Source of the DNA: Patescibacteria group bacterium
GTDB taxonomy: Bacteria; Patescibacteriota; Minisyncoccia; Minisyncoccales; JAHCRE01
Assembly: GCA_020148055.1 (NCBI GenBank)
Contig: JAHCRF010000001.1
Location: forward strand, 71,257-135,256
DNA length: 64,000 nucleotides
Direction: 5' to 3'
In this document: piece by piece, positions 1,426 to 51,799 of the stretch
Position numbering within the stretch: position 1 is the first letter of the stretch
Layout of the letters: each line of letters starts with the position of its first letter
Program-made: the position numbers and the translations under genes
Notes under the pieces: model-generated
What the model saw: only the letters and a program-made list of their open reading frames with translations
Told to the model about the DNA's origin: nothing
Database searches by the model: none

Positions 1426-2694
1426 TTAACTTATTCTTAAATTCGCATCAGCTTCAATATCAGGGGCCCGCCAAAGGCGGGAAGGTGGTCGGGACGCGAG
1501 GCCTTCTCGTGAAACGGGAGGCCCCGTCCTTGGGCGGGTCGGAGTCCAGGCCTTAGTTTCTTTTCTGAGATAACGAAAATAAGCAGCTACTGCCACCATA
1601 ACGGCATTATCAGTACATAAAATTTTTGGTGGAACCAAAAATTTAATCGTTAATCGCTGGTTTTTAATTGCTAATTGAAATTGTTTTCTTAATTCATTAT
1701 TGGCAGCCACCCCTCCACCAAGGATAATCATTCCGGCTTTATATTTTCTTGCTGCCTGGATGGTTTTATGAATTAAAACGTCAACTATTGCCTGTTGGAC
1801 CTCGGTAGACATTTCCTGGATAAATTTTTGCTTTTTGCGTTCTGTTTTCTGTTTTTTGATTTTATATAAGACCGCGGTTTTCAGACCAGAAAAACTGAAA
1901 TCAAAATTTTTTTGGTGAATCATTGGCCTCGGTAATTGAATATTGAATATTGAATATTGAATATTGGATTTTAATTGAGCGGCAAGCCGTTCAATGGCCG
2001 GTCCTCCTGGGTAATCCATTCCTAAAATTCTGGCTACTTTGTCAAAACATTCACCAGCAGCATCATCTCGAGTTTCACCAAGGATTTTGTATTCTCCGTA
2101 ATTTTTCATTAAAATTAACTGGGTATGACCGCCGCTTACCACTAAACAAACTGCCGGAAACGAAAACTTTAAACTTGAACCAACCAAGTTGGCGAAAATG
2201 TGAGCTTCGATATGGTTTACTGGGATTATTGGTAGTTCCCAAGAAAAAGCTAAAGCTTTGGCAAAATTTACCCCTACCCACAAGCAAGGTTCTAACCCTG
2301 GCCCCATAGTCACGGCAATTAGATCAATTTTTGGTTTCCTGTAATTTCTTAAGAATTCTTTTAACTCCTTTAAAAGATATTCTTCTCGTTTGAATATTTC
2401 TTCTAATACTGGATACTTGATACTTAATAGTTGATGCTTATCATTTTTTTTAAGCGATTTTGCTTTTTTTAACGCCCTTTTTAAAACAGGAATCAAATTT
2501 CGTTGGTGCTCTCTTTTAGCTAAGGTTGGATAGACTCCTCCATATTTTCTGTGAATTTTTATCTGAGAAGAGATAATATCAGACAGAATATTAATTTTCA
2601 TCCGTCTAAATCCGCGTTGTAATCTACCTTTATCTACTTCTACAATCGCTATACAGGTATCGTCACATGATGTTTCGACAGCAAGAATAATCAT
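1426..2694 (-). CDS. tsaD: tRNA N6-adenosine threonylcarbamoyltransferase TsaD (Kae1/Gcp family)
   Basis: MIILAVETSCDDT, NHIEAHI, VSGGHTQL, LCTDNAVM motifs. At 422 aa it is longer than usual because of repeat inserts at 1463-1547 and 1935-1969. Confidence 0.9.
   Translation of the reverse strand: MIILAVETSCDDTCIAIVEVDKGRLQRGFRRMKINILSDIISSQIKIHRKYGGVYPTLAKREHQRNLIPVLKRALKKAKSLKKNDKHQLLSIKYPVLEEIFKREEYLLKELKEFLRNYRKPKIDLIAVTMGPGLEPCLWVGVNFAKALAFSWELPIIPVNHIEAHIFANLVGSSLKFSFPAVCLVVSGGHTQLILMKNYGEYKILGETRDDAAGECFDKVARILGMDYPGGPAIERLAAQLKSNIQYSIFNIQLPRPMIHQKNFDFSFSGLKTAVLYKIKKQKTERKKQKFIQEMSTEVQQAIVDVLIHKTIQAARKYKAGMIILGGGVAANNELRKQFQLAIKNQRLTIKFLVPPKILCTDNAVMVAVAAYFRYLRKETKAWTPTRPRTGPPVSREGLASRPPSRLWRAPDIEADANLRIS
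1463..1547 (+). repeat. GC-rich hairpin element family A, copy 1 (in frame near the 3' end of tsaD, antisense to the host)
   Basis: 85 nt, about 87% identical by eye to 28032-28115. It is a GC island in AT-rich DNA and encodes ...TPTRPRTGPPVSREGLASRPPSRLWRAP... of TsaD. Confidence 0.9.
1935..1969. repeat. five-heptamer array (attgaat x4 + attggat) inside tsaD
   Basis: Direct reading. Encodes ...SNIQYSIFNIQ... upstream of the conserved FDFSFSGLKTAV. Confidence 0.85.
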
Positions 2695-4515: not shown

Positions 4516-6711
4516 TTATTCTAAATGGATTCTTTCTCGAAACTTCTCTACTCTTCCCCTTAATAAGGGATATTTTTTTAATTCAGGGTCCTCTTCTAAA
4601 ATTTCTTTAGCCGCCTTTCTAGTTTTCTCAACTAAGAATATATCTTTCAAAGCTGACATTGCTAAATCAGGAATTCCCCATTGTCTTTGACCAAAAAAAT
4701 CACCAGGGCCTCGAATTCCCAAATCTTTTTCAGCTAACTCAAAACCATTTTCAGAAGAAATCAAAGCTTTCAATCGTTGATGAGTTTTCTTAGCTGGAGA
4801 GTCAGTGAATAAAAAGCAAAAAGATTGATATTTTGATCTTCCTACTCTTCCCCGAAATTGATGGAGCTGCGCTAGCCCAAATCTTTCTGCTCCCTCAATC
4901 ATCATTACCGTGGCATTAGGAACATCGATCCCCACTTCAATTACTGAGGTTGAGACTAAAATGTCAATCTTTTTACCCCTTCCGGTTTGTGCAGAAAAAT
5001 GTTTCATTATCTTCTCTTTTTCTTTTGTAGTCATTTTCCCGTGTAACATTCCAACTTTTAAATCAGGGAAAACAATTTTTGATAGTTTTTGATATTCTTC
5101 TTTTACTGCCCTTACCTCAGCCCAGCTTGAAATTTCTTTTTCTATTTTTTCCTTATCACTAGGTTCAATCCTTGGGCAAATAACAAAAACCTGTCTTCCT
5201 TTTTTAACAACAGAGCGTATAAAATTATAAGCAGCCTTACGATTTCCCGGGGCAATCACCTTAGTGACGATTTTTTTCCTTCCCTTCGGCAATTCATTAA
5301 TTAAAGAAAGATCAAGATCACCGTAAATAGTAAGAGCCAAAGTCCTTGGAATTGGGGTAGCGGTCATTGATAATAAATGGGGAATTATTCTTGTTGCTTG
5401 CCCGCCTGCCGGCGAGGCTGGTTGCTGGTTGCTAGTTGCTAACTTTGCCCTTTGTTCCACTCCAAACCGATGCTGCTCATCCAGGATAACCAGAGCCAAT
5501 TTTCCAAAGCGCACTTTTTCTTGAATTAAGGCGTGAGTACCAATTAAAAGATCAATCTCTTCTTTTTTTAATTTTTCTAAAAGTTTTTCTCGAGAAATTT
5601 TGATAACTTTATTTTTTCTGTCGCCGAAAGCGACTCCCCGGAGGGTTGCTCTTTTAGAAAAAATTCTATTTTCTTTCCCGGTTAAAAGACCAATATTTAA
5701 ATTAAATTTTTTTAAAAGTTTTGAAATCTCCTGAAAATGTTGCTTAGCTAGGATTTCAGTTGGAGCCATAAAAGCCACTTGGAAACCTTGTTTTATTACA
5801 TTTAAAGCAGCTAATACAGCCACCACTGTTTTCCCTGAACCAACATCGCCTTCTAAAAGTCTGTTCATCGGTCTTGGTTTTTCGAGGTCTTTTAGAATCT
5901 GCCAGGCTGATTTTTTTTGGGCATTAGTTAATTTGAAAGGTAAGCTTTTAACAAAATTCTTAATTAACTGGGGATGAAAAGGGATTGGAATTGCTCTTTC
6001 TTTTGAGATTTTTAATTTCTCTCTTAAAACAAAAAGAGAAATAAAAAAAAGCTCCTCAAAAGAAAATCTTTTCTGAGCCTTTTTGGCTAAGGTTAAGGAA
6101 TCTGGGAAATGAATCTGCCAGATAGCTCTTTGGATTGGCAAAATTCGAGAATCTCTAATTACTTTTCCTGGTAGGGGTTCGCGAATTTTCTTTTTAAACT
6201 CAACCAAAAGGGGTCTTAGAATAAATCTTAACCATCTTGAAGACAATCCTTCAGTTTCGGGATAAACAGGGACAATTCTTCCGGTATGAATTAGACTTGT
6301 AGTTTGACTGATTTTCTCATGAGCTGGATTTGATAGATAAAGTCCTTTGTCTCCGAGAGTTATTTTTCCAGCTAAACATAAATTATCTCCTGATTTTAAA
6401 ACTTTTATTAAATAAGGTTGGTTAAACCAGATTACCTTTATTGCTCCTGATTTGTCTTTGACTATTGCCTGGGTTAAAATCATTCTTTTTTTCCAGGTTC
6501 TGATGTTTTCAATTTCTAGAATTTTTACCTTAATACAACAGGTTTCATTAAGTTTTACTTGAGATATCGGAATTATATTTGAAAAATCCTCATAGCGATG
6601 AGGAAAATGATAGAGAAGATCCCTGATTGTCTTTATTCCCAATTTCTTCAACCTCTTTTGGTAGCTGAGACCTACTCGAGGCAGACTCTCAATTGGAGTA
6701 GAAAGATTCAT
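4516..6711 (-). CDS. recG: ATP-dependent DNA helicase RecG
   Basis: Start moved to ATG 6711 (MNLSTPIESLPRVG), below the tRNA. Has DVGSGKT Walker A, LDEQHRFG, MTATPIPRTL and QFRGRVGRS. Contains inserts B and E. Confidence 0.9.
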   Translation of the reverse strand: MNLSTPIESLPRVGLSYQKRLKKLGIKTIRDLLYHFPHRYEDFSNIIPISQVKLNETCCIKVKILEIENIRTWKKRMILTQAIVKDKSGAIKVIWFNQPYLIKVLKSGDNLCLAGKITLGDKGLYLSNPAHEKISQTTSLIHTGRIVPVYPETEGLSSRWLRFILRPLLVEFKKKIREPLPGKVIRDSRILPIQRAIWQIHFPDSLTLAKKAQKRFSFEELFFISLFVLREKLKISKERAIPIPFHPQLIKNFVKSLPFKLTNAQKKSAWQILKDLEKPRPMNRLLEGDVGSGKTVVAVLAALNVIKQGFQVAFMAPTEILAKQHFQEISKLLKKFNLNIGLLTGKENRIFSKRATLRGVAFGDRKNKVIKISREKLLEKLKKEEIDLLIGTHALIQEKVRFGKLALVILDEQHRFGVEQRAKLATSNQQPASPAGGQATRIIPHLLSMTATPIPRTLALTIYGDLDLSLINELPKGRKKIVTKVIAPGNRKAAYNFIRSVVKKGRQVFVICPRIEPSDKEKIEKEISSWAEVRAVKEEYQKLSKIVFPDLKVGMLHGKMTTKEKEKIMKHFSAQTGRGKKIDILVSTSVIEVGIDVPNATVMMIEGAERFGLAQLHQFRGRVGRSKYQSFCFLFTDSPAKKTHQRLKALISSENGFELAEKDLGIRGPGDFFGQRQWGIPDLAMSALKDIFLVEKTRKAAKEILEEDPELKKYPLLRGRVEKFRERIHLE
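5383..5439 (-). repeat. element family B, copy 1 (gcaacNN heptamers + GC hairpin), in frame in recG
   Basis: Sense strand gcaactagcaaccagcaaccagcctcgccggcaggcgggcaagcaacaagaataatt is about 90% identical to 50750-50807. Encodes ATSNQQPASPAGGQATR. Confidence 0.9.
5620..5649 (+). repeat. element family E, copy 1 (gtcgccgaaagcgactcc hairpin), in frame in recG
   Basis: The gtcgc/gcgac stem with its flank resembles 48138-48156 (gtcgccgtaaggcgactcc). Encodes ..TLRGVAFGDRK... Confidence 0.7.
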
Positions 6712-7899: not shown

Positions 7900-9015
7900 A
7901 TGGTCCGATTTCCTTTTAAAATAGGTCTTAAGAGTTGCCTAGGGATAGATATTGGGACTTCCGGGATAAAAATTGTTCAATTATCACTCCAAAGAGAAAG
8001 AATAAAATTAGAAAAATATGGTGAGGCAACTGCTCGAATTTTTTATGAGAAACCTTTCAGAACTTTTGAGAAAAGTACCCTTTTACTATCTAATCAAGAT
8101 ATCGCTCGGGCAATTTTAGCTATTTGTAAAGAGGCAAAAATTTCTGAAAGGAAAGCCATTTTTGCAATCCCTGATTTTTCAAGTTTTTTTACCAGTTTTA
8201 ATCTACCGGCAATGACCAGAGAAGAGGTTTCTCAGGCAGTCAGATTTGAAGCTCGTCATCATATTCCCTTACCCTTAGCTGAAGTGAGTTTAGATTGGTC
8301 AATAATTGAAGGAGAATTAAGTGATCGAAAAAAAGTTCCTCTAAAGATCCTATTGGCGGCTGTACCTAACAATGTTATTAATCAATATCGCCAAATAGTT
8401 GTTTTGTCAAATCTTGAACTTAAGGCTTTAGAAGCTGAAGTATTTGGGCTATTAAGATCTTTGATTGGAGATGATAAGAGAGTGATTATCTTGTTAGATA
8501 TTGGAGCTCAAAGCACAAGCTGCAATATTATTGATCAGGGAATTTTAAAAGTCAGTCATAGTTTTGATGTAGCTGGAAATGAATTAACTCAAGTTTTAGC
8601 CAAGGCATTAAATGTTGATTATTTAACAGCGGAAAATTTAAAAAAAATTCATGGCCTAAAATTTTTGGTTTCCGGTGTACCTCCTATTGAAAAGAATCAA
8701 GAGATTCCCTTAATGACCAAGAAGGTTGGAGAGATTTTAAGACCTTTAATTGACCTAATTTTAACTGAAACAAAAAAGACTTCCCGAAGTTTTTATCAAA
8801 CTAAAGGGAAAAAAGTTCAAAAAGTGATTATTGCCGGCGGTTCGGCCTTACTCCCTGGTCTTAAAGAATATTTTTTCAAATCCCTTAAACAAGAAGTAGA
8901 GATTGCCAATCCTTTTTCTGACATTTTATATTCTCCAATTCTTGAAGAGACTTTGAAAAAAATGGGACCCTCTTATGCCATAGCCGTAGGTATGGCCCTG
9001 AGGGGACTCGAATAA
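7900..9015 (+). CDS. pilM: type IV pilus assembly protein PilM (actin-like ATPase fold)
   Basis: GIDIGTSGIKIVQL, DIGAQST and IIAGGSALLPGL motifs. First gene of the pilMNO order. Confidence 0.85.
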   Translation: MVRFPFKIGLKSCLGIDIGTSGIKIVQLSLQRERIKLEKYGEATARIFYEKPFRTFEKSTLLLSNQDIARAILAICKEAKISERKAIFAIPDFSSFFTSFNLPAMTREEVSQAVRFEARHHIPLPLAEVSLDWSIIEGELSDRKKVPLKILLAAVPNNVINQYRQIVVLSNLELKALEAEVFGLLRSLIGDDKRVIILLDIGAQSTSCNIIDQGILKVSHSFDVAGNELTQVLAKALNVDYLTAENLKKIHGLKFLVSGVPPIEKNQEIPLMTKKVGEILRPLIDLILTETKKTSRSFYQTKGKKVQKVIIAGGSALLPGLKEYFFKSLKQEVEIANPFSDILYSPILEETLKKMGPSYAIAVGMALRGLE

Positions 9016-9016
9016 A

Positions 9017-9544
9017 ATGGCAATAGAAATTATTCCAAAAAAAGTAGTTGGACCTTCCCCTTGGCAAAATACCTTGCTTTATTTTTTCATTTCTTTACTT
9101 TTGGTTTCCATTTTGGGTTACTTTGCCTTAGATTATTTTGTCAAAGAAGCTGATCGGACTCTTCTGGAGTTGAAAGAGGAGTTAATTGAAGCAAGATCTC
9201 CTCAACAAGTTGCCTTGGAAAAAGAAATTTCGGATTATCGAGAAAAAATCGAAGATTTCTCTTCTTTACTTGCTAGCCACCAAAAGAGTTCAAATTTTTT
9301 TGATTTCCTTGAGGAAATTACCCATCCTAAGGTTTTCTTTTCTGAGCTAAATTTGGATACTAAAGGAAATCGAGTTAGACTTTATGGTCAGGCTGATAGT
9401 TTTCAGACCCTGGGCCAACAATTGCTGATTTTTCAAAACTCTGAATTTATTCGGAATTTAAGTTTACCAGAAATTAGAATTAGAGAAGAGGGAAAAATCG
9501 GATTCATTTTTGATTTTTCTCTTAATCAAGAATTGTTTCAATAA
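9017..9544 (+). CDS. pilN: PilN-like pilus assembly protein (single N-terminal TM)
   Basis: 175 aa, one TM then a coiled coil. Called on position after pilM. Confidence 0.6.
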   Translation: MAIEIIPKKVVGPSPWQNTLLYFFISLLLVSILGYFALDYFVKEADRTLLELKEELIEARSPQQVALEKEISDYREKIEDFSSLLASHQKSSNFFDFLEEITHPKVFFSELNLDTKGNRVRLYGQADSFQTLGQQLLIFQNSEFIRNLSLPEIRIREEGKIGFIFDFSLNQELFQ

Positions 9545-9547
9545 ATT

Positions 9548-10105
9548 ATGTCTCGATTAACTTTAATTATTATTTGTTTTTTCCTCATTTTATTAATAGG
9601 CCTTTTCTTAATCTGGCCAAAATATCAAAACTTGGGAGCTCTTAAACTTGAAATTGAAGGAAAGGAAATTGAATTACAATACTTGGAAGAATATTTTCAA
9701 AGGCTCGATCAGCTTTCCCAAGAGCTTAAAAAATATGAGGCTCAACTTTCAAAGATTGATTTTGCCCTTCCCTCTGATTCTTCTTTAACTTTGCTTTCTT
9801 TAATAAATTTCCTTCAAAAAGCGAGCTCCCAAAATGGTTTAGTTTTTAAAGAATTGGGATCGTTTTCAATAATCTTACCGAAACCACCAGCCGAAGCTTC
9901 TGGTCTTCAGGAATCTCAACTTTCTTCTAAAATCAAAGAGATCTATCTTGGCTTTGAAGTTGCTGGTTCTTATTCTGCTTTGAAAAATTTCCTTAATACC
10001 TTGGAAAAAAGTGCCAAACTTATCGAAGTAGAAGAGGTTTCTTTTTCTTTTGAAGAGGAGGAGATTTTTTCTTTTATTTTTAAAATAAAAACTCATTCTT
10101 ATTAA
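9548..10105 (+). CDS. pilO: PilO-like pilus assembly protein
   Basis: 185 aa, N-terminal TM plus coiled coil. Called on position after pilN. Confidence 0.6.
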   Translation: MSRLTLIIICFFLILLIGLFLIWPKYQNLGALKLEIEGKEIELQYLEEYFQRLDQLSQELKKYEAQLSKIDFALPSDSSLTLLSLINFLQKASSQNGLVFKELGSFSIILPKPPAEASGLQESQLSSKIKEIYLGFEVAGSYSALKNFLNTLEKSAKLIEVEEVSFSFEEEEIFSFIFKIKTHSY

Positions 10106-10111
10106 AGATCT

Positions 10112-10378
10112 ATGGCTGTTACTTTTATTGAATCAAGAAAAAGGCAGAAATATCTAATTTTTATCTTAGTTGTGGTGATTTTTGGAATTGCTTTCCTAAT
10201 CTGGAATTATTTTTCAGCAAAACCAAAGCTTCCCTTCTTTAAACCTCTGCCGCCACCTGAAATAAAAATAAATTTTGAAATATTAAAAAGTCCAACTTTG
10301 GACGAACTTCAGTTATTTGAAGAGATTTTACCCTTTGAAGAGGAAATTGGTCGAGAAAATCCCTTTACTCCCTATTAG
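10112..10378 (+). CDS. small single-TM protein of the pilus locus (function unknown)
   Basis: 88 aa ORF packed tightly between pilO and pilB. One hydrophobic helix (YLIFILVVVIFGIAFLIW). Confidence 0.5.
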   Translation: MAVTFIESRKRQKYLIFILVVVIFGIAFLIWNYFSAKPKLPFFKPLPPPEIKINFEILKSPTLDELQLFEEILPFEEEIGRENPFTPY

Positions 10379-10432
10379 GTCTTGAGAAAAATCTTCATCT
10401 AATATCTATTACCTAATATCTAAATTTAGATT

Positions 10433-12160
10433 ATGACGTTAGTTCGCCAATTGATTCAAAAAAAGATCTTAAATAAAGAAAAAGCCACTTCTCTAGAATT
10501 TGAAATTAAAAGCTCGGGAAGAAAAGAGGAAGAGGTGATTTTAGAGAAAAAAATAGTTTCTGAAAGTTTTTTATTTAAGTTAAAGAGCGAAAATCTTAAA
10601 ATACCTTTGAAAGAAGTTCTTCCTGAAGATGTAATTTTCAAGGTTTTGGAGCGCATTCCTGAGGAATCAGCCAAGTATTACAAGATGATACCAATCCGTC
10701 AAAGAGACGATCTGTTGGAAGTCGGAATGGTCTATCCAGAGGATTTAAAAGCTCAAGAAGCTCTCAAATTCTTAACTCGTCAGGAAAAATTGTCTTATGA
10801 AGTCTTTTTGATTACCCCTACTACTTTTAATAATCTCTTGAAGAAATACCGAACTTTGAAAAAAGAAGTCACTAAGGCTTTAGAGGAGTTAGAAGAAGAA
10901 ATAAAGGTAGAGAAAGTTAAAGCTAGGCCTTTGGCTCCTGCTGAATTCGAAAGATTGGTTGAAGAGGCTCCAATTTCTAAAGTAGTGGCCGTGATGTTGA
11001 GGCACGCAGTAGAAGGAGATGCTTCTGATATTCATATCGAACCAACCAGAGATAAATTAAAAGTTCGATTCCGGTTAGATGGAGTTTTACATTCTTCTCT
11101 CCTCTTACCTATTAGAATCCATCAAGCTGTGGTAGCCAGAGTTAAAATTCTATCTAATCTTAAGATTGATGAAATGAGAGTGCCTCAAGACGGTAGATTT
11201 TCGACTAGAATAGATGGTCAAGACATTGATTTCCGGGTTTCCACTTTTCCGACTACCGAAGGAGAAAAAGTGGCAATCAGAGTTTTAGACCCTTCAAAAG
11301 GAATGTTGAGCTTGGAAGAATTGGGGATGGTTGGTAGAAATCTCGAGGTGATAAAGGAAGCGATAAAAAAACCCTATGGGATGATTTTAGCTACTGGTCC
11401 CACCGGGACAGGGAAAACCACTACCTTGTACGCTATTTTAAAAATTTTAAATCAGGAAGGAGTAAATATTGTTGCTTTAGAAGATCCGGTTGAATATTAT
11501 ATTGGAGGGATTAATCAGTCCCAGATGAGACCGGATATCGGTTATACTTTTGCCACCGGTTTGCGGCATGTTGTCAGACAGGATCCTGATATCATTATGG
11601 TTGGAGAGATTCGAGATGAGGAAACAGCTTCCTTAGCTACCCATGCTGCCTTAACTGGCCATGTTGTTTTATCTACCTTGCATACTACCAATGCCTTAGG
11701 AACAATCCCTCGACTTATTGATTTAGGAATTCAACCTTATTTAATTCCCCCCACTATAAGTATCTCTTTAGCCCAGAGATTGGTTAGGAGATTGTGTCCA
11801 GAATGTAAAAAGAAAGTCAAACCAAAATTAAAAATCAGAGATTTAATTTTGAAAGAAACTGAAGCTCTTTCTCTAACAGCTAAAAAAGATCTTAAGATCT
11901 CGAAAAGCTTCTCAATTTTTGAGCCTAAGGGTTGTAAAAAATGTCGTTTTGAAGGTTATTCTGGTCGAATTGGGCTTTTTGAAGTTTTAGTAATGACCGA
12001 TGAACTTTCTGAGCTAATCTTGAAGGAACCTTCAGAAGTTAAGATTGCTGAGGAGGCCGAAAACCAGGGAATGATTACAATGAAACAAGACGGTATTTTA
12101 AAAGTTTTAGATGGCATCACTTCAATTGAAGAAGTTTTGAGAGTGGCTGAGGAGAAATAA
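10433..12160 (+). CDS. pilB: type IV pilus assembly (extension) ATPase PilB/GspE family
   Basis: N-terminal GSPII-type domain, Walker A GPTGTGKTTT, Asp/His boxes and a tetracysteine CPEC...CKKC. Confidence 0.9.
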   Translation: MTLVRQLIQKKILNKEKATSLEFEIKSSGRKEEEVILEKKIVSESFLFKLKSENLKIPLKEVLPEDVIFKVLERIPEESAKYYKMIPIRQRDDLLEVGMVYPEDLKAQEALKFLTRQEKLSYEVFLITPTTFNNLLKKYRTLKKEVTKALEELEEEIKVEKVKARPLAPAEFERLVEEAPISKVVAVMLRHAVEGDASDIHIEPTRDKLKVRFRLDGVLHSSLLLPIRIHQAVVARVKILSNLKIDEMRVPQDGRFSTRIDGQDIDFRVSTFPTTEGEKVAIRVLDPSKGMLSLEELGMVGRNLEVIKEAIKKPYGMILATGPTGTGKTTTLYAILKILNQEGVNIVALEDPVEYYIGGINQSQMRPDIGYTFATGLRHVVRQDPDIIMVGEIRDEETASLATHAALTGHVVLSTLHTTNALGTIPRLIDLGIQPYLIPPTISISLAQRLVRRLCPECKKKVKPKLKIRDLILKETEALSLTAKKDLKISKSFSIFEPKGCKKCRFEGYSGRIGLFEVLVMTDELSELILKEPSEVKIAEEAENQGMITMKQDGILKVLDGITSIEEVLRVAEEK

Positions 12161-12166
12161 AATTAT

Positions 12167-12532
12167 ATGAGGTCAATTTTATTGGTTGAGGACGATCCTT
12201 TTATCATTGATATTTATACTACTAAATTGAAAGAGGCCGGATTTTTTATTGAGATAGCCGAAGATGGTGAAGAGGCCTTGAAAAAAATAAGAGAAAAAAA
12301 ACCCGACCTTTTAGTTTTAGATATTGTTCTGCCTAACATTGATGGATGGGAACTTCTTAAGAGAGTTAGAACCGAATTAGGTTGCGAAGATTTAAAAGTA
12401 GTTGTTTTTTCCAATCTCAGCCAAAAGGCAGACGTTGAAAAAAGTTTGGAATTTGGAGTAATAAAATATTTCATTAAAGCGGATTTTACTCCAAGTGAAG
12501 TGGTTGAAGAAATAAAGAAAATACTAAAATAA
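12167..12532 (+). CDS. stand-alone response-regulator receiver (CheY-like)
   Basis: 121 aa. Has the LLVEDD acidic pocket, phospho-acceptor context LLVLDIVLP, and S..K later. Confidence 0.85.
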   Translation: MRSILLVEDDPFIIDIYTTKLKEAGFFIEIAEDGEEALKKIREKKPDLLVLDIVLPNIDGWELLKRVRTELGCEDLKVVVFSNLSQKADVEKSLEFGVIKYFIKADFTPSEVVEEIKKILK

Positions 12533-12540
12533 TTTTAATT

Positions 12541-13608
12541 ATGGACTATTCTTCTCAACTTAGAGAATTATTGAATTTTACCATCCAAGAGAAAGCCTCT
12601 GATTTACATATTTCAGTTGGTCATCCTCCAGTTTTAAGGATAAGTGGTCGACTTATCCCCTTAATTAAATTCAAAAAAATTACTTCCGGAGACTCTCAGG
12701 GGTTAGCTTTTGAATTAATGACAGAGGAACAAAGAGAAAGATTTCTTCAGAAAAAAGAAATCGATTTTTCTTATAATTTTGAAGGAAGGGCAAGATTTAG
12801 AATCAATATTTTTTTTGCAAGTGGAAATATTTCCTCTGCTCTTCGTCTCATTCCAGCCAAAATTCCAACCATTGAAGAATTGAATCTTCCTCCAATTTTG
12901 CATCAATTTACCAAGCCTTCTCAGGGATTTGTTTTAGTTACTGGTCCCTCATCTCATGGAAAATCAACGACTCTAGCGGCTCTACTTGATGAGGTAAATC
13001 ATACCAGAAACGATCATATAATCACTATTGAGGATCCAATTGAATATGTTTTTGAGGACGATCGTTGTATTATTGACCAAAGGGAAGTTTATCAAGATAC
13101 AATCTCTTTTGCCCAAGCCCTAAGATCAACTTTCCGCCAAGACCCTGACGTAATTATGGTGGGAGAAATGAGAGATTTAGAAACCATGGCCACCGCTATT
13201 TCTGCTGCTGAAACCGGGCACTTGGTCTTCGCTACTTTACACACCAATTCAGCCTCCCAGAGTATCCATCGAATTGTTGATTCTTTTCCTCCTTTACAGC
13301 AAAGTCAAGTTAGAGCCCAATTATCAGGCTCTCTTTTAGGAGTAATTTCCCAGAGATTAATTCCTAGAATTAAAGGAGGCTTGATCCCTACTTGTGAAAT
13401 AATGATTAATACCTCGGCTGTGGCTAATTTAATTCGGGAAAACAAAATTCATGAATTACCCTTGGTTATTGAAACCTCAGCTGAAATCGGAATGGCTTCT
13501 TTAAATCGGTCTTTAGCCAATCTGGTTAGAGCAAAAGAAATTTCTTTAGAAAACGCCTTACTTTATTCTCTTAATCCAGTTGAACTAAAAAAACTTCTTA
13601 GATATTAA
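12541..13608 (+). CDS. pilT: twitching-motility (retraction) ATPase PilT
   Basis: 355 aa. Has Walker A GPSSHGKSTT, MVGEMRD and TGHLVFATLHT. Confidence 0.9.
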   Translation: MDYSSQLRELLNFTIQEKASDLHISVGHPPVLRISGRLIPLIKFKKITSGDSQGLAFELMTEEQRERFLQKKEIDFSYNFEGRARFRINIFFASGNISSALRLIPAKIPTIEELNLPPILHQFTKPSQGFVLVTGPSSHGKSTTLAALLDEVNHTRNDHIITIEDPIEYVFEDDRCIIDQREVYQDTISFAQALRSTFRQDPDVIMVGEMRDLETMATAISAAETGHLVFATLHTNSASQSIHRIVDSFPPLQQSQVRAQLSGSLLGVISQRLIPRIKGGLIPTCEIMINTSAVANLIRENKIHELPLVIETSAEIGMASLNRSLANLVRAKEISLENALLYSLNPVELKKLLRY

Positions 13609-13614
13609 AATAAA

Positions 13615-14826
13615 ATGAGATTTAATTATCAGGCCAGAACTAAAGCCGGTTCGCTTCAAAGCGGAACAGTTGAATCCTCTTCCCGAGAGGCAGCTTTAAC
13701 TCTTTTGGAAAAATATGGACTTTATGTCACTTCTTTAGAAAGGGCAGAAGTAATGCCAGTTTTTTTTAGAAAAATAAAGCTTTTCCAGAGAATCTCTAGT
13801 GGGGAGATAGTCAGTTTTTCAAGGCAATTGGCCATTATGTTTAAATCGAGAATTCCAATAGTGGAGATTTTTTATACTCTAGCCAAACAGACTAAAAATC
13901 CAAGTTTTAAAGAAAAAATTATTAAAATTGCTGAAGATGTAGAAGGGGGAGGTCCTCTTTCTTCTACCCTAGCTAAGCATCCGAGAATTTTTAGTCAATT
14001 CTATATCAGTATGGTCAAATCTGGCGAAGTTTCTGGAGAACTTTCAGAAGTTTTAGATTATTTAGCTGACCATTTGGAAAGGGAAAGGGATTTCCGTTCA
14101 AAAATGATTGGCGCAATGATTTATCCCGTCTTAGTTTTAATAGTTGTCTTAGTCGTAATTGTGGCAATGACCCTTTTTGTTATTCCCAAATTAGGTGACA
14201 TGATAAAAGAAATGGAGATGGAGACTCCTTTTATAACTGATCTTGTTTTAGGTTTTTCTGATCTTTTAAGAAAATGGGGAATATTTTTTATTGTTGGTGT
14301 TTTTATCTTAATGTTTGCCTTTTCCCGGTTCTTCAAGACCAAGCAGGGGAAAATAATTTTTGATAAATTTTCTTTGAAATTCCCTATAATTGGCGGTTTT
14401 TTACAAAAGCTTTATCTTACTCGTTTTGCCGAAAATTTGTCAACCTTAATTTCAGGAGGCTTGCCAATTGCCCGGGCTTTAGAAATCACCGCTGACATAG
14501 TTGGAAACGATGTTTACAAAAGCATCATTTTAACAGCTCGAGACGGGGTGAGAAGAGGAGAAACAATATCTTCTATTTTAGAAAAGTATCCTGAAGATGT
14601 CCCTCCTTTATTTACCCAGATGACCTTAGTTGGAGAGAGGGCTGGTCAAATAAGTCCAGCCCTAATGAATATCGTTGGTTTTTATCGAAAGGACGTTGAA
14701 AGAACTCTTGATAACTTTGTCAGTTTTCTTGAGCCACTTTTACTTATATTTTTAGGAGTAGTAGTTGCCGGATTAGTAGCCAGTGTTTTAATGCCAATCT
14801 ATCAGGTTGCCTTAGGAGGAATATAG
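13615..14826 (+). CDS. pilC: type IV pilus platform protein PilC (GspF family)
   Basis: 403 aa polytopic protein with duplicated T2SS-F-type domains. Confidence 0.85.
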   Translation: MRFNYQARTKAGSLQSGTVESSSREAALTLLEKYGLYVTSLERAEVMPVFFRKIKLFQRISSGEIVSFSRQLAIMFKSRIPIVEIFYTLAKQTKNPSFKEKIIKIAEDVEGGGPLSSTLAKHPRIFSQFYISMVKSGEVSGELSEVLDYLADHLERERDFRSKMIGAMIYPVLVLIVVLVVIVAMTLFVIPKLGDMIKEMEMETPFITDLVLGFSDLLRKWGIFFIVGVFILMFAFSRFFKTKQGKIIFDKFSLKFPIIGGFLQKLYLTRFAENLSTLISGGLPIARALEITADIVGNDVYKSIILTARDGVRRGETISSILEKYPEDVPPLFTQMTLVGERAGQISPALMNIVGFYRKDVERTLDNFVSFLEPLLLIFLGVVVAGLVASVLMPIYQVALGGI

Positions 14827-14856
14827 AAGTTTTCCACAGTTCGACTTATAAAGATT

Positions 14857-14865
14857 TGTTATAAT
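14857..14865 (+). promoter_or_regulatory. extended -10 (TGtTATAAT) upstream of the major pilin gene
   Basis: Motif read directly. No good -35 was seen. Confidence 0.35.
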
Positions 14866-14894
14866 AAAAATTGAGCCCTTCTAATGGAACTGAA

Positions 14895-27177: not shown

Positions 27178-30100
27178 ATGAAGTTTAAAGATTTTTCAAA
27201 ATCAAAAATTTCCCTACCCTTACCTTATTTACTCTCGATTCAAAGAGAAAGCTGGCAGAGATTTTGGGAAAGAGATTTAAAAGAACTCTTTTCAGAAATA
27301 TCGCCCATTCAAGATTATACCGGAAAGGAGTTAGAACTCTGGTTTTTAGACTATAAATTGGATGAGCCCAAATATAAAACTACCTTGGAAGCTAAGGAGA
27401 ATAATGATTCTTATGAAGCAGCCTTGCGGGCTAGAGTAAGATTAGTCAATCTCAAAACAAAAGAAATTAAAGAACAAGAAGTCTTTTTAACCGATTTCCC
27501 CTTAATGACCAAGAGAGGAACTTTTATTGTTAACGGGATAGAAAGAGTAGTTATTTCTCAGCTTATTCGTTCCCCCGGCGCCTTTTTTACTTCTCAGATA
27601 ATTAGAGGTGAAACTCATTTTGGAGCAAAAATTATTCCTAATCGGGGAGCTTGGCTTGAATTTGGAACTGAAGCCTCCGGTTTTATTGGAGTTAAGATTG
27701 ACCGAAAGAGAAAAGTAGCAGCTACTACTTTATTGAGAGCTTTCGGAATTGATCAAGATGAAAAAATTCTAGAGATCTTCCAAGATATTGATAACAATCC
27801 AGAAATTAACTATATTTCAGAGACAATAAAAAGAGACCCTACTAAAAATCAAGCCGAAGCCTTAATTGAAGTCTATCAGCATCTAAGACCAGGAGATTTA
27901 ACAACCGCTGAGACAGCTAGAGAGTTGATTGAAAACATGTTTTTTAATTTTGAAAGATATGATTTGTCAAAAGTAGGGAGATGGCGAATGTGGCAGAGAC
28001 TACCGGAATTGAAAAAATCCAAAATCCAAAAGGGGCCCACGAAAGTGGGAGGGCGGTCGGGACGCGAGGCCTTCCCGCGGAACGGGAGGCCCCGTCCTTG
28101 GGTGGGTTGGAGTCCAAAATCCAAAACTAAAAAGCCAAAGCTAGAAGAAGGAATCACCAGGTCAGATAGGGTTTTGCATCCCGAAGATATTGTGGCTGTT
28201 TTGAGAGAGATTATTAGATTAAATAATGACCCCGGGGGAAAACCCGATCAGATTGATCATTTGGGCAATCGGCGAGTAAGAACTTTAAATGAACTTTTAC
28301 AAAACCGATTAAGGGTAGGTTTAATGAGAATGGCCAGGATTATCAAAGACCGAATGGCTACTTTAGATATTTCCATCTTAACCCCGGTTCAATTGATTAA
28401 TTCCCGACCATTTATAGCGATAGTTAGGGAATTCTTTACCTCTTCTCAGCTTGCTCAGTTTATGGACAATGAGAATCCTCTTGCTGAATTAGAGCATAAA
28501 AGAAGACTATCAGCTACCGGACCAGGTGGTTTAACTCGAGAAAGAGCTGGGTTTGAGGTTAGAGATGTTCAACCATCCCATTATGGAAGGATTTGCCCTA
28601 TCCAAACTCCTGAAGGACCAAATGTTGGGTTAATTAATCATTTAGCTGGTTTTGCCCGAGTTAATCCTTATGGTTTTATTGAAACTCCTTATTTCAAGGT
28701 GAAAAATGGAAGGGTTACTTCAGAAATTTGTTATCTTAATGCCTATGAAGAAGAAAAGTATAATATTGCCCATGGAGGAGTACCAATCGATGAGAAAGGC
28801 AAAATTACCTCCAAAAAGGTTGAAGCTAGAGTAAAGGGTGAACCAGGAATAGTTGGTAGAGAAAAAGTTGATTTTTTCGACATCTCTCCTGCCCAATCAA
28901 TTTCTATCGCTACTTCTTGCATTCCTTTTTTACAAAATGATGATGCCAACCGAGCCTTAATGGGATCAAATATGCAAAGACAAGCTGTTCCTCTTCTCAG
29001 ACCAGGGGTTCCCCTAGTTATTACTGGAGCAGAAGAGAAGGTAGCTAGAGATTCTGGCCAGGAGATAATTGCCGAGGAAGAAGGGGTTGTTACCGAAGTC
29101 GATGCTAATCATATTAAAATTAGGGGTAAAAAGGGAGAAAAGAAATATCCTCTGCAAACTTTTATTCAGACCAATCAATTCACTTGTTTTCATCAAAGCC
29201 CCTTAGTTAAAAAAGGGAAGGTTGTTAAAAAAGGAGACATTTTAACTGATGGTGGAGGAATTTCTCAAGAACATTTAGCTTTAGGCCGAAATATTTTGGT
29301 TGCTTTTATGTCCTGGCGTGGAGGAACTTTTGAAGATGCAATTTTGATTTCTGAAAGATTGGTTAGAGATGATGCTTATACTTCAATTCATATTGAGGAT
29401 TTTAGTTGTGATGTTCGAGAAACCAAATTGGGACCGGAGATTACAACCTGTGATATTCCTAACGTTTCAGAAGAAAAATTGAGGAATTTAGATGAAGAAG
29501 GTTTAGTCAGAATTGGGGCTGAAGTTGGCCCAAATGATATCTTGGTTGGGAAGATTTCTCCAAAAGGAGAAGTTGATTTAACTGCTGAGGAAAGATTATT
29601 GAGAGCTATTTTTGGAGAGAAAGCTAGAGAAGTTAAAGATACCTCTTTATTAATGGAGCATGGTAAACAGGGGAGGGTAATTAATGTGAAGATTTTTTCT
29701 AGAGAATCGGGTCATAGACTTGACCCCGGAGTGATAAAAAGAATTGATGTTAAAGTAGCGGAGATTAGAAAAACTCAAGCCGGTGATAAATTAGCTGGTC
29801 GCCATGGGAATAAGGGAGTGATTTCTAAGGTTTTACCAATTGAAGATATGCCATTTTTAGAAGATGGAACTCCAGTCGATATTATTTTAAATCCTCTAAG
29901 CATTGCCTCGCGAATGAATATTGGTCAAGTTCTGGAAGCTCATTTAGGAAAAGCGGCCAAAAAATTGGGCTACATTGCTATTTCTCCGGCCTTAGCTGGA
30001 GTGACTGAGGAAGAGATTAAAGAAGAGCTTAGGAAGGCTGGATTACCAGAAGATGGAAAAGTCGCTCTTTATGATGGCCGAACCGGCCTACCTTTTTCCA

Positions 30101-30480
30101 AAAAAATTACTGTTGGCTATGTTTATATGATGAAATTAATTCATATGGTTACCGATAAAATCCACGCCAGATCAATTGGACCTTATTCTCTAATTACTCA
30201 ACAGCCCTTAGGAGGAAAGGCCCAATTTGGAGGTCAAAGATTCGGAGAAATGGAAGTTTGGGCTTTAGAAGGACATGGAGCAGCCCATAGTTTACAGGAA
30301 ATGTTAACTATTAAATCCGATGATGTCCAAGGTCGGGCAGCTGCTTATCAGGCCATCTTAAAAGGAGAGCCAATCAGAAATCCTAATGTTCCCGCGTCTT
30401 TAAATTTACTAATCAATGAATTAAAGGCTCTTGGGCTAAATGTTGAAATAAAAGAAAACCCCAAAGAACAAGAATCCTGA
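27178..30480 (+). CDS. rpoB: DNA-directed RNA polymerase beta subunit
   Basis: 1100 aa with canonical beta motifs (GRHGNKGV, FGEMEVWALE). Carries a 123-nt repeat insert at 28014-28136. Confidence 0.97.
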   Translation: MKFKDFSKSKISLPLPYLLSIQRESWQRFWERDLKELFSEISPIQDYTGKELELWFLDYKLDEPKYKTTLEAKENNDSYEAALRARVRLVNLKTKEIKEQEVFLTDFPLMTKRGTFIVNGIERVVISQLIRSPGAFFTSQIIRGETHFGAKIIPNRGAWLEFGTEASGFIGVKIDRKRKVAATTLLRAFGIDQDEKILEIFQDIDNNPEINYISETIKRDPTKNQAEALIEVYQHLRPGDLTTAETARELIENMFFNFERYDLSKVGRWRMWQRLPELKKSKIQKGPTKVGGRSGREAFPRNGRPRPWVGWSPKSKTKKPKLEEGITRSDRVLHPEDIVAVLREIIRLNNDPGGKPDQIDHLGNRRVRTLNELLQNRLRVGLMRMARIIKDRMATLDISILTPVQLINSRPFIAIVREFFTSSQLAQFMDNENPLAELEHKRRLSATGPGGLTRERAGFEVRDVQPSHYGRICPIQTPEGPNVGLINHLAGFARVNPYGFIETPYFKVKNGRVTSEICYLNAYEEEKYNIAHGGVPIDEKGKITSKKVEARVKGEPGIVGREKVDFFDISPAQSISIATSCIPFLQNDDANRALMGSNMQRQAVPLLRPGVPLVITGAEEKVARDSGQEIIAEEEGVVTEVDANHIKIRGKKGEKKYPLQTFIQTNQFTCFHQSPLVKKGKVVKKGDILTDGGGISQEHLALGRNILVAFMSWRGGTFEDAILISERLVRDDAYTSIHIEDFSCDVRETKLGPEITTCDIPNVSEEKLRNLDEEGLVRIGAEVGPNDILVGKISPKGEVDLTAEERLLRAIFGEKAREVKDTSLLMEHGKQGRVINVKIFSRESGHRLDPGVIKRIDVKVAEIRKTQAGDKLAGRHGNKGVISKVLPIEDMPFLEDGTPVDIILNPLSIASRMNIGQVLEAHLGKAAKKLGYIAISPALAGVTEEEIKEELRKAGLPEDGKVALYDGRTGLPFSKKITVGYVYMMKLIHMVTDKIHARSIGPYSLITQQPLGGKAQFGGQRFGEMEVWALEGHGAAHSLQEMLTIKSDDVQGRAAAYQAILKGEPIRNPNVPASLNLLINELKALGLNVEIKENPKEQES
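28014..28136 (+). repeat. nested insert in rpoB: 'aaaatcc' heptamer array interrupted by element A
   Basis: aaaatcc aaaatcc aaaa[84-nt A]aaaatcc aaaacta aaaagcc. The total of 123 nt equals 41 codons. Confidence 0.8.
28032..28115 (+). repeat. GC-rich hairpin element family A, copy 2 (in frame in rpoB, sense)
   Basis: 84 nt, about 87% identical to 1463-1547. Encodes ..GPTKVGGRSGREAFPRNGRPRPWVGWSP... Confidence 0.9.
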
Positions 30481-48803: not shown

Positions 48804-48864
48804 CCAGATTTGTTAGATAGAGGGTTTGTTGAAATTCTTTGAAATTTTGGGTATAATAACTTTT

Positions 48865-49698
48865 ATGAAAGAAAAAGTTATTAAAATCCGTGGAGCCAAA
48901 GTTCACAATTTAAAAAATATTAATCTTGATATCCCAAAAAACAAACTGGTAGTGATTACTGGGATTTCAGGTTCAGGAAAATCATCTTTGGCCTTTGATA
49001 CATTATATGCTGAAGGACAAAGAAGATATGTTGAGAGTTTATCTGCTTATGCAAGGCAATTTTTAGGAGTGATGGATAAACCAGAGGTTGACAAAATTGA
49101 AGGAATTTCACCTGCAATTTCAATTGACCAAAGAAAAGCAGCTCACAATCCACGCTCCACTGTTGGAACCATTACTGAAATTGCAGATTACTTAAGATTA
49201 TTATTCGCTAGGATAGGGAAGCCCCATTGTCCAAAATGTAAAAAAACAGTTAGCCGTCAGACCATCGATCAAATTACTGATCAGGTTTTGAAATTGCCAA
49301 AAAGAACAGAAATTTCGATTTTGGGTCCAGTTGTTAGAGGTCGAAAAGGAGAGCATCGGGGAATTTTAGAAGAGATTCAAAGATCAGGATTTATCCGAGT
49401 GAGAATTGATGGGATTTTACACCGAATTGAAGACTACAACCCACCCACCATGTCCTCCCACTCGCTTCGCGAGCGGGCCCCTACTCTAGGGCTGAAGTTA
49501 GACCGAAAGAAAAAACACAATATTGAGGTTGTTGTTGATAGATTAATAATTGATAAAGACTTGGATAGATCAAGGTTGGTTGATTCTCTGGAAACAGGCC
49601 TAAAGTTGGGAAAAGGAATAGTAATAGTAACTCAAAAAGCTTCCCCAGCCCCACCCGCCACCCATCAAAGGAAAAAAACATCTAAGGCAAAAATCTAA
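48865..49698 (+). CDS. uvrA: excinuclease ABC subunit A, N-terminal fragment; the frame ends at TAA inside or just after repeat element C
   Basis: [47 protein letters not shown]... TATAAT (48852-48857) lies 7 nt upstream of the ATG. Confidence 0.85.
49435..49492 (+). repeat. GC-rich insert D in uvrA (hairpin cccactcgc-ttc-gcgagcggg at 49457-49477)
   Basis: GC island encoding ..[19 protein letters not shown].. between conserved RIDG and [13 protein letters not shown]. Shares gcgggcccct with the reverse complement of element A copy 1. Confidence 0.65.
49629..49693 (+). repeat. element family C, copy 2; coincides with the frame break in uvrA
   Basis: Identical over 65 nt to 31037-31101. Confidence 0.95.
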
Positions 49699-51799
49699 TG
49701 ACTTAATATTCAGCGAGTATTTTGCCTGCGAGGAATGTGGGATTTCTCTTCCAGAATTAGAGCCTCGGCTTTTTTCATTTAATTCTCCTTATGGGGCCTG
49801 TTCAGCCTGCCAGGGGCTTGGAGAAAAATTAGAAATCGATCCAAAATCAGTTTTACCCAATCCAAATTTATCGATTTCTGAAGGAGCAATTTTTCCCTGG
49901 GCTCATGCCTCTCATAAAGTTGGCAGGCAGGGTTATTTTTGGTGGCAGTTCACCCACTTGGCAGAAAAGTATAACTTCTCCTTAGATGTCCCGGTTAAAG
50001 AACTTCCCAAAAAGATCATTGATTTAATTTTATATGGTAATGGCCAATTTGAGGGAGTAGTTCCCAATTTGGAAAGGAGATATCACGAAACTGATTCAGA
50101 ATATACCCGTAAGGAAATTGAGCAGTATATGATAAAAAAGAGATGTGAAAAATGTCAGGGAAAAAGATTAAGGCCTGAAGCCTTGGCAGTGACTGTGATA
50201 AAAAAATCAATAAATGAAATCGTTGAAATTTCAATAGAAAAAGAAAAAAGATTTTTCGAGAATTTACTACTAAATCCTAAATCCTATAACCTAAATCCTA
50301 ATGACTACAAAATTGCCCAACCAATTGTTAAGGAAATCATTAAGCGATTACAATTTCTAATTGATGTTGGTTTAGATTATTTAACCTTAGATCGGAAGAC
50401 AGAAACTTTATCGGCTGGGGAAGAGCAGAGAATAAGATTGGCTACTCAGTTAGGTTCTCAATTAACCGGAGTTTTATACATTTTGGATGAACCTTCAATT
50501 GGTCTTCATGCTAGAGATCAGGGTAGGCTCATCGAAACCTTAAATAAGTTAAGGGATTTGGGCAATACCGTTATTGTTGTTGAACATGATCCTCAGACAA
50601 TCATGGCTGCTGACTGGGTGATCGATATAGGGCCAGGAGCGGGGAAACACGGTGGCAAAATTATATTTAAGGGAACACCAAAAGAATTACTGAGATCAAA
50701 GACACTTACTGGAGATTATTTAGCTGGAAGAAAGAAAGTTGAGATAAAAGCAACCAGCAACAAGCAACCTGCCTCGCCGACAGGCGGGCAAGCAACCAAG
50801 AATAATTATCTAATAATAAAGAAAGCGGCTGAGCACAATCTCAAAAATATTGATGTTAAAATTCCTTTGGGAAAATTTGTCTGCATTACTGGAGTTTCGG
50901 GTTCGGGCAAAAGTTCTCTAATGAATGATATTTTAGCTAAAGCCCTGATGAGGAAATTTTACAAAGCCAAAGAGGAACCGGGAGAATTTAAAGAATTAAT
51001 TGGAACAGAATTTTTGGATAAAGTGGTTTTAGTGGATCAGTCTCCAATTGGCCGAACCCCCAGATCAAATCCGGCAACTTATACCGGAGTTTTTTCTTAT
51101 ATCAGAGATCTTTTTTCAAAAACCAGAGAGGCCAGAATTAGGGGGTATCGGCCAGGACGTTTCAGTTTTAATGTTAAGGGAGGAAGATGTGAAGTATGTC
51201 AAGGTCAGGGTCAAATCAAAATCGAGATGTACTTTTTGCCTGATATTTATATTGAGTGCCAGGAATGTAAGGGGAAAAGGTTCAACAAAGAAACCTTGGC
51301 TATTGAATATAAAGGAAAGAATATTGCTGAGGTTTTAGAAATGACAGTTGAAGAAGCCCTAAAATTTTTCATAAATATTCCCGGTATCTATCATAAATTA
51401 AAAACTTTGTATGATGTTGGTTTAGGCTATATTCAATTGGGCCAGCCAGCCCCTTCTTTGTCTGGAGGGGAGGCCCAGAGAGTGAAATTAGCTACTGAAC
51501 TTTCTAAAAGGGCTACGGGAAAGACTTTATATATTTTAGATGAACCAACCACTGGTTTGCATCCCGATGATATTAAAAAATTAGTTTGGGTTTTGAGAAA
51601 TCTGGTAGATAAAGGAAATACGGTTTTATTAACTGAACATAACATCGATATCATCCGCAATTCAGATTGGATAATAGATTTAGGACCGGAAGGTGGAGAT
51701 GAAGGCGGCGATATTATTGCAATAGGTACTCCATTTGAAATTACAAAAAACAAAAAAAGTTATACCGGACACTATTTAAAACAAGTTTTTAAATCTTGA
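49631..51799 (+). CDS. uvrA: excinuclease ABC subunit A, remainder of the gene in the +1 frame (open from 49631; UvrA homology resumes about 49700)
   Basis: [41 protein letters not shown]... and a second ABC module, [10 protein letters not shown]...[12 protein letters not shown]...[12 protein letters not shown]. The track only lists it from 49958. Confidence 0.85.
50271..50305. repeat. five-heptamer array (taaatcc taaatcc tataacc taaatcc taatgac) inside uvrA
   Basis: Direct reading. Encodes ..[15 protein letters not shown]... Confidence 0.85.
50750..50807 (+). repeat. element family B, copy 2, in frame in uvrA
   Basis: gcaaccagcaacaagcaacctgcctcgccgacaggcgggcaagcaaccaagaataatt. Encodes [17 protein letters not shown]. 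Confidence 0.9.

Follow-up and report, generated by a model that had tools for sequence, protein, structure and literature searches.

The Rickettsia palindromic elements (RPEs) RPE-1 to RPE-10 (Ogata et al. 2000, 2002) are palindromic repeats of approximately 100–150 bp which are confined to Rickettsia (summarised in PMC10969869). A second group, the CGTC-tagged repetitive extragenic palindromic (REP) sequences (Di Nocera et al. 2013), includes RPE-4, RPE-6 and the Neisseria repeat dRS3 and is characterised by a stem of 8–9 bp with A/T in its first two positions, a loop of 4–5 nt, an unpaired CGTC tag at the terminus and a tail of CCA (PMC3733652). These repeats are abundant, mostly extragenic and often arranged as head-to-head dimers, and no dedicated transposase has been identified for them (PMC3733652). 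Here a GC-rich hairpin repeat, termed element A, is described from a stretch of 64,000 nucleotides of an uncultivated Patescibacteria group bacterium with a very small genome (assembly GCA_020148055.1, contig JAHCRF010000001.1, positions 71,257 to 135,256; hereafter the window), where it lies in frame within two essential genes, tsaD and rpoB. It belongs to a repeat family whose members are nested within one another, are inserted without target duplication and in both orientations, possess stems that have evolved by compensatory change and are polymorphic for presence and absence. The best-supported interpretation is that of a new family of selfish, non-autonomous hairpin DNA that behaves like the RPEs and the intragenic REPs. 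Element A itself is probably selfish hairpin DNA that has moved recently and is tolerated in frame, a judgement that does not extend to the mechanism of its transposition. An initial annotation of the window had proposed an RPE-like in-frame hairpin repeat outside Rickettsia, and this reading is supported on each of the three counts on which it could have failed (further copies, covarying stems and the lack of homologous peptides in orthologs from unrelated phyla). To it are added the nesting of a 42-nt core in a scaffold of about 42 nt, the absence of target duplication and the polymorphism between near-identical genomes.

The two copies of the composite element in the window (Table 1) are identical at 74 of 85 positions (87%) in a global alignment and have a GC content of 73–74%, as against 35% for the window overall. 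A 20-mer and a 22-mer shared between them each occur exactly twice in the window and in none of 100 shuffles. The positions and the degree of identity reported in the initial annotation were thus confirmed, as was its claim, from the translations, that the copies are oppositely oriented with respect to their host genes, the open reading frame (ORF) of tsaD being open through the element in the antisense direction and that of rpoB in the sense direction. It had also been claimed that conserved sequence resumes beyond the insert; this is clear for RpoB but only weakly testable for TsaD, in which just 11 residues follow.

When a fragment of 233 RpoB residues around the site is compared with the E. 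coli beta subunit it aligns in two blocks, between which 50 residues of the window protein stand opposite approximately 7 residues (406–412) of the E. coli protein. The 28-residue insert is absent from all 15 RpoB relatives compared (55–73% identical to the query fragment, with the insert counted in), which have a short variable Lys-rich linker instead. Another RpoB ortholog, P0008, has a different insert (DPRETKRGTEAVGSVPAGRKAARS) at the linker where the window RpoB has element A. A different sample yielded an RpoB fragment, P0017, that matches the window sequence exactly and whose contig stops inside the element; it records the junction between RpoB and the element independently. In TsaD the insert comprises residues 383–410, whilst the alignment to solved TsaD structures stops at about residue 375–380. 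As the insert lies beyond the last structure-aligned residue, with 11 residues left, it sits in the C-terminal tail. No homologous peptides were found in RpoB or TsaD orthologs from unrelated phyla, and the closest RpoB orthologs, together with most orthologs of a further host protein, LigT, are without the insert.

Table 1. Positions in the window of the two composite copies of element A, their parts and their host genes.
Feature	Position	Strand	Remarks
Composite element A, copy 1 (85 nt)	1463..1547	+	within tsaD, antisense to the gene; about 28 residues (TPTRPRTGPPVSREGLASRPPSRLWRAP) added to the C-terminal tail
Scaffold hairpin H1, copy 1	1467..1481	+	CCCGCC-AAA-GGCGGG
42-nt core hairpin, copy 1 (TCGGGACGCGAGGCCTTCTCGTGAAACGGGAGGCCCCGTCCT)	1489..1530	+	76.6 bits, covariance model R1
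Scaffold 3' arm, copy 1 (TGGGCGGGTCGGAGTCC)	1531..1547	+	
Composite element A, copy 2 (84 nt)	28032..28115	+	within rpoB, sense to the gene; 28 residues (GPTKVGGRSGREAFPRNGRPRPWVGWSP) added in the variable Lys-rich linker
Scaffold hairpin H1, copy 2	28036..28049	+	CCCAC-GAAA-GTGGG
42-nt core hairpin, copy 2	28057..28098	+	76.4 bits, covariance model
Scaffold 3' arm, copy 2 (TGGGTGGGTTGGAGTCC)	28099..28115	+	
11-mer AAAATCCAAAA	28021..28031 and 28116..28126	+	directly 5' and directly 3' of copy 2
Host gene tsaD (422 aa)	1426..2694	-	PF00814; E = 1e-70 to solved TsaD structures
Host gene rpoB (1100 aa)	27178..30480	+	alignment to E. coli beta

The 85-nt element is a nested composite of 42 + ~42 nt, since a scaffold that lacks the core is found in the same contig. 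The core is a 42-nt GC-rich imperfect palindrome (TCGGGACGCGAGGCCTTCCCGCGNAGCGGGAGGCCCCGTCCT) that begins with TCGGGACG and ends with CCCGTCCT (the CGTCCT end), and its limits were set by the core-free scaffold and by the comparison of empty with filled LigT alleles. It is found alone in LigT, DinB, enolase and RnpA, and within a scaffold in the two window copies and in five others. The scaffold consists of GGGG followed by the hairpin H1, then AGGGYGG, after which the core is inserted, and finally TGGGNGGGTTGGAGTCC; its arms are G-rich and it ends in GGAGTCC. The core-free version, GGGGCCCGCAAAGCGGGAGGGTGG^TGGGTGGGTTGGAGTCC (the caret marking the insertion point), lies at 13441-13481 on the minus strand of locus L004, in an intergenic spacer some 3.8 kb before window position 1, and includes a G-quadruplex motif of canonical form (GGGAGGGTGGTGGGTGGG). 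The three copies in the contig that are related to element A all lie on the plus strand of the window. In the sense of the element, the core has been inserted at AGG^AGGG in LigT, at TGG^TGGG in the scaffold, at TGG^TGAA in enolase and at ATT^AGGT in DinB. The context can be described as a loose GG^WGG, which on the other strand reads CCW^, usually an in-phase Pro codon. A tRNA-like origin was also considered and rejected: although the tail GGTTGGAGTCC is one base off a T-arm, ARAGORN found no tRNA at the element sites, a tRNA model likewise made no call, and there is no acceptor or T stem.

Recent mobility is recorded in the alleles of LigT. Over syntenic DNA the filled locus L002 and the empty locus L021 share 92–96% identity; their LigT proteins share 97% when the loop that receives the insert is set aside. 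L021 reads GGCCCT^CCTAAAAAG, and L002 has exactly 42 extra nucleotides at this point with no target duplication. The core-free scaffold is likewise continuous at GG^TGGG, so that neither of these core insertions is accompanied by a duplicated target. A general target-site duplication was therefore rejected, a flanking repeat being present at copy 2 only, and none like AAAATCCAAAA was seen at the other copies of the element; the 11-mer pair around the rpoB copy may represent a target duplication made by the scaffold element or slippage in the Lys-rich repeat. The bare loop, ICYGP-PKKMP-PRMVW, is present in 96 of 120 LigT orthologs, and the core is confined to the L002 lineage and L006. No insert is present in the protein closest to that of L002 (97% identical without the loop) or in the nearest LigT relatives of L006 (80% identical). 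Either the same nucleotide was hit twice, or a filled allele moved between lineages, or many precise losses have occurred.

The same loop, ICYGP^PKKM^PPRMVW, is an insertion hot spot in Parcubacteria (L002 2270-2338; L022 318-371; proteins P0126-P0245). Besides the 42-nt core it holds inserts of net 66 nt (PRSMSPSGSF...), a 54-nt type with two hairpins (YSETKSLTGRLDKVENR) and others. The 66-nt and 54-nt types are hairpin inserts unrelated to the core, and for the 54-nt type the filled and empty alleles are 99.1% identical. On the LigT tree the inserts have a scattered distribution, and in most cases the nearest relatives are empty.

The second of these routes to double filling could be extended to the whole family, such that no transposition occurs and filled alleles are spread by DNA uptake and homologous recombination. 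This would account for the filling of one LigT site in both L002 and L006 whilst closer relatives remain empty; the 30 nt upstream of the site are nearly invariant, and the window encodes PilB, PilT, PilC, PilM, PilN, PilO and a prepilin peptidase of the type IV pilus/competence kind. Exchange between homologous alleles cannot, however, explain non-homologous sites in at least 10 genes, nor the nesting of the core in the scaffold, and the LigT flanks of L002 and L006 are only 63–76% identical (49% at third codon positions), and nothing around the insert suggests that a tract was imported. As a full explanation recombination is hence unlikely; at orthologous sites it may contribute to the spread, but the chief mechanism it cannot be.

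The wider family was traced by several routes, its members coming from ENA, JGI, NCBI and Logan assemblies of different studies and from one closed genome. A 20-mer search of species-representative genomes gave one true match, the closed Ca. Nealsonbacteria genome CP179888.1, along with two matches in GC-rich genomes that have the appearance of chance. A gapped DNA pattern recovered 7 metagenome contigs of 33–37% GC, and a profile built from four reading frames of the element recovered 4 more proteins, for which the DNA was then obtained; enumeration of the family by peptide profile is limited to these 4 matches, short matches giving poor E-values. A search of protein cluster representatives returned one low-complexity match. 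No copies were found in three scans of viral contigs, and phages were accordingly rejected as vectors. The further copies are both genic and intergenic. Of the 8 distinct sites found by the DNA pattern (2 in the window and 6 from other genomes or contigs), 7 are intragenic, and the copy in L011 lies between rsmI and metG.

The genic copies number 11 in 10 different genes, and the host frame is open through all of them. Six are antisense, namely those in TsaD (window), LigT (L002 and L006), DinB (L007), RpoA (L008) and RnpA (L015), and all are read in the frame designated A2 (PRTGPPxxREGLASRP). The five sense copies make use of two frames, S1 (SGREAFPRxGRPRP) in RpoB (window) and SecA (L009), and S2 (GRDARPSRxxGGPVLG) in TsaE (L012), GatA (L018) and enolase (L017). 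As three frames on two strands encode three unrelated peptides, the conserved entity is DNA and not a protein module, and a conserved peptide or domain was rejected on the same ground. The use of both orientations likewise speaks against any signal exerted through the host mRNA. Two of the host genes are themselves irregular. The core-bearing enolase gene (L017 225-1571) contains an in-frame stop about 30 codons downstream (KKQK*IDEFLIKLDGT) and its gene call is split in two, which could reflect an error, a pseudogene or recoding. The gatA copy (L018 322-870) is at the head of a truncated gene, a C-terminal fragment with its ORF start at the element and upstream DNA that encodes something else, and the element may therefore lie at a rearrangement or truncation junction.

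An alignment of 12 distinct cores gives a 16-pair interrupted stem in two helices with a loop of 3–5 nt, in which 98.4% of cells are paired. Four pairs have both partners changed (G-C to A-T twice, C-G to G-C, G-C to T-A, C-G to T-A), a number reached in none of 500 shuffles, and when the partner is slid by 1–3 columns no more than 2 such pairs remain. In the outer helix the double changes are those of L015 and L018; as both were found via protein, these changes are not a product of the search. In H1 there are 7 different stems in 8 scaffolds, of 4–7 bp, and all pair. The covariation proposed for the first hairpin in the initial annotation is hence upheld and gains much in strength from the added copies, and compensatory change is found in the core stem as well as in the scaffold hairpin. 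The same annotation took G:U pairs as a sign that the plus strand folds. Wobble pairs on the sense strand do exist (at 21-31 in the copy winA, at 23-29 in L012 and L017, and in H1 of L012), but a C-A at the loop-closing pair in two copies would be a wobble on the other strand, and the inference of strand is no more than suggestive. The pairing of the 3' tail with H1 that the annotation implied is broken in L009 and was rejected. Nothing credible was found in Rfam, either for the whole window at the gathering threshold or for the element and the core-free scaffold at E = 10, the best scores being 19 bits against thresholds of 40 or more. With no match above the gathering threshold, a known RNA family (tRNA-like, intron, ribozyme or sRNA) was rejected.

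Conservation of this kind might be expected of a functional element selected by the host, such as a signal for pausing or attenuation in DNA or RNA, a site for protein binding or a G-quadruplex/hairpin switch, the sequence being maintained at each locus by selection. The cores are 94% identical across copies despite the divergence of the LigT flanks given above, the differences between them are compensatory, the core-free scaffold has its G-quadruplex motif, and the three copies of the contig share a strand. High similarity between copies is, however, equally expected of a recently active element, and three copies on one strand carry a probability of P = 0.25; the GC skew of the window follows gene orientation and is uninformative on replication-strand bias. 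Moreover, the copies occupy both orientations with respect to transcription (5 sense, 6 antisense), in unrelated genes and at non-homologous positions. Their absence from near-identical orthologs means that no host gene needs the element. Selection for a host function is therefore improbable.

It has to be asked whether the inserts reach the protein at all, as they could be excised from the mRNA in the way of an intron or bypassed by the ribosome in the manner of the byp elements of Magnusiomyces mitochondria or of T4 gene 60. A stable GC-rich hairpin in an AT-rich genome does resemble the mitochondrial GC clusters and byp elements. A signal at the RNA level cannot work in both orientations, though, and both occur; Rfam gave no intron or ribozyme match even at E = 10. 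The units measured (42, 84, 54 and net 66 nt) are, moreover, all multiples of three. Translation would select for such lengths, whereas removal or bypass would not need them, and the lengths thus favour read-through and leave an untranslated insert very improbable. An assembly or sequencing artefact, for instance a chimeric join at a GC-rich contaminant, is scarcely credible, for whilst the P0017 contig ends inside the element and repeats do break assemblies, the family occurs in a closed genome as well as in assemblies from different studies, the RpoB junction is reproduced independently by P0017, and the copies differ by compensatory substitutions.

Several points weigh against a translated, recently mobile element. 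No transposase or other obvious mobilising enzyme was found by Pfam in 40 further ORFs of the window or in the fetched loci. The copy number is low: ~72 kb of this contig contain 2 composites and 1 scaffold, and 20 kb of a related genome contain none. When 176 kb were searched with a covariance model, only known copies came back, so that the family is one of low copy number. No dimers of the element were seen. All 6 antisense copies are in frame A2 although A0 is also open, which random insertion would not predict, and for which the CCW^ insertion preference would provide an explanation. Most DNA copies were retrieved with patterns that fix parts of the stem, and variation there is under-sampled. 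The folding energy does not differ significantly from that of shuffled sequence (z -1.1 to -1.6). That the inserts are translated, as 14 or 28 extra residues, is suggested by their length and open frames alone, and open frames were rejected as proof of translation, the core being open in nearly all frames (P = 0.44). Finally, an AlphaFold model of the RpoB fragment predicts no secondary structure for the insert and linker (fragment residues 84–123), with a predicted local distance difference test (pLDDT) score of <50. This would fit a loop, in a model that is poor as a whole (mean pLDDT 56).

The most probable course of events is the following. The 42-nt core has inserted into the ~42-nt scaffold element to give the composite, and both the composite and the lone core have moved to many sites in the genomes of Parcubacteria, members of the candidate phyla radiation (CPR). 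In such densely coding genomes most insertions would fall within genes. With units that are a multiple of three (42, 84), GC-rich and almost free of stops, the reading frame would be kept and the inserts would be read as additional residues, many of them Arg, Gly, Pro or Ser; the residues G, P, R, S, A, E and T make up 80% of the insert peptides. Copies would then last only in places at which the protein can accommodate a flexible loop or tail, for instance the variable linker of RpoB or the C-terminal tail of TsaD.

As for the mechanism, the model favoured here, albeit speculatively, is that the element moves as a hairpin of single-stranded DNA on which an HUH-type enzyme encoded elsewhere in the genome acts in trans, in the manner of the insertion sequences (IS) IS200/IS605 or of the REP/RAYT (REP-associated tyrosine transposase) systems. 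It fits the lack of target duplication, the wobble pairs on the sense strand and the loose GG^WGG context. A still more doubtful proposal is that of a still-active class of coding-compatible hairpin elements, in bacteria with genomes of roughly 0.6 Mb that are nearly devoid of classical transposases, which move by an undescribed, site-selective mechanism and act as a general source of lineage-specific protein loops in the CPR. The repeated use of the LigT position, the nesting of the core at GG^TGGG and the lack of target duplication would point to it.

Other inserts and repeats were noted in the window. An identical stretch of ~62 nt (CTCAAAAAGCTTCCCCAGCCCCACCCGCCACCCATCAAAGGAAAAAAACATCTAAGGCAAAAA), encoding 20 residues, occurs at 31037-31100 in rpoC and at 49625-49690 in uvrA. 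The rpoC copy is in frame; behind the uvrA copy come two stop codons, and the gene resumes in another frame, so that uvrA is split into the ORFs 48826..49698 and 49958..51799. The stretch in uvrA could be a frame-breaking insert, or the gene a pseudogene, or there could be an error in an A7 run. A second repeat family is represented at 5380-5460 (recG, a gene on the minus strand) and 50749-50807 (uvrA), the two copies being 91.5% identical over 59 nt, in the same orientation with respect to both genes and encoding ATSN(Q/K)QPASP(A/T)GGQAT(R/K) in frame. A third GC-rich in-frame insert, of 26 residues, lies at 49429-49506 in the UvrA_inter domain of uvrA, contains the hairpin CCCACTCGC-TTCG-CGAGCGGG and is 85% identical over 53 nt to positions 53-105 of the metagenome contig L011. 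The uvrA gene thus carries three different inserts. There are also GC islands at 55354-55411 in an M48 peptidase ORF (SFWGGGSRRRREGRREGGSI) and at 63248-63302 in an ORF that runs off the window end, and no second copy of either was found in the sequence data examined. The region 7900-19095 encodes a complete type IV pilus/competence-like cluster, comprising PilM, PilN, PilO, two T2SSE ATPases, T2SSF, a prepilin peptidase and five N-methyl pilins; such clusters are typical of the CPR and may be relevant to the uptake of DNA.

Palindromic repeats that lie in frame have largely been regarded as peculiar to Rickettsia and are now found in Patescibacteria as well, with several families. A literature search found no report that joins Patescibacteria or the CPR with REP elements, MITEs (miniature transposable elements with inverted repeats) or RPE elements. 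The interest of element A lies in the extension of the RPE phenomenon to the CPR, in its nesting, in the repeated use of one site and in the filled and empty pairs. It suggests a general way for selfish DNA to survive in very compact genomes: its length is divisible by three, its GC-rich sequence has no stops and the peptide that it encodes is floppy. It also offers an explanation for some of the lineage-specific insertions in CPR core proteins (RpoB, RpoC, SecA, UvrA and others), which matter for alignment, phylogeny and annotation. The repeats break metagenome assemblies too, as illustrated by the contig that ends inside the element. Filled and empty pairs in such tiny genomes provide natural before-and-after comparisons with which the enzyme that mobilises REP- or RPE-like hairpins may be sought by comparative genomics.

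Several known systems bear comparison with element A. As with IS200/IS605, the palindrome-associated transposable elements (PATEs) and the REP/RAYT systems, its ends are defined by a hairpin, there is no target-site duplication and there are hints that one strand folds. Unlike IS200/IS605, it has one central hairpin rather than two subterminal ones, its target is at best a loose GG^WGG, and no Y1/HUH transposase was found in the 40 window ORFs or the fetched loci. It differs from a MITE, which has terminal inverted repeats derived from an IS and a target-site duplication, in that there is no duplication at the core and the 11-nt flanking repeat is restricted to copy 2, and no parent IS is known. 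The GC clusters and byp elements of yeast mitochondria are similarly GC-rich hairpin insertions in genes of a compact AT-rich genome, but these are organellar and the byp elements are skipped by the ribosome, whereas the multiple-of-three lengths here argue for read-through.

The likeness to the REPs resides in a single short GC-rich stem-loop and in the fact that some REPs are also intragenic, and the CGTC REPs, too, have no identified transposase of their own; the inner stem of the core, TCCCGC/GCGGGA, presumably resembles dRS3. Tagged REPs bear a GTAG or CGTC tetranucleotide terminally, on one side of the stem-loop (PMC3733652). The core does contain GACG...CGTC, but as paired stem bases 1–2 nt from its ends and not as an unpaired tag. 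Unlike the CGTC REPs, it has 16 interrupted pairs with G-C or G-T at the base, the TCCA end is found in the composite only, and the copies are mostly intragenic, few in number (2–3 in ~72 kb) and not dimeric. In comparison with the RPEs, the units are shorter (42 nt or 84–85 nt), strongly GC-rich and found in Parcubacteria/Nealsonbacteria, a distinction drawn from the description of the RPEs rather than from a comparison of DNA, and the filled and empty alleles are still segregating at 92–99% nucleotide identity. By the defining features of length, host, stem rules and extragenic abundance, element A is not a member of either the RPE or the REP families. What it shares with the RPEs is its behaviour, in that families of palindromic repeats lie in frame in unrelated housekeeping genes of a small AT-rich genome, are used in either orientation, add a peptide at positions that tolerate it and are conserved as DNA rather than as a protein domain.

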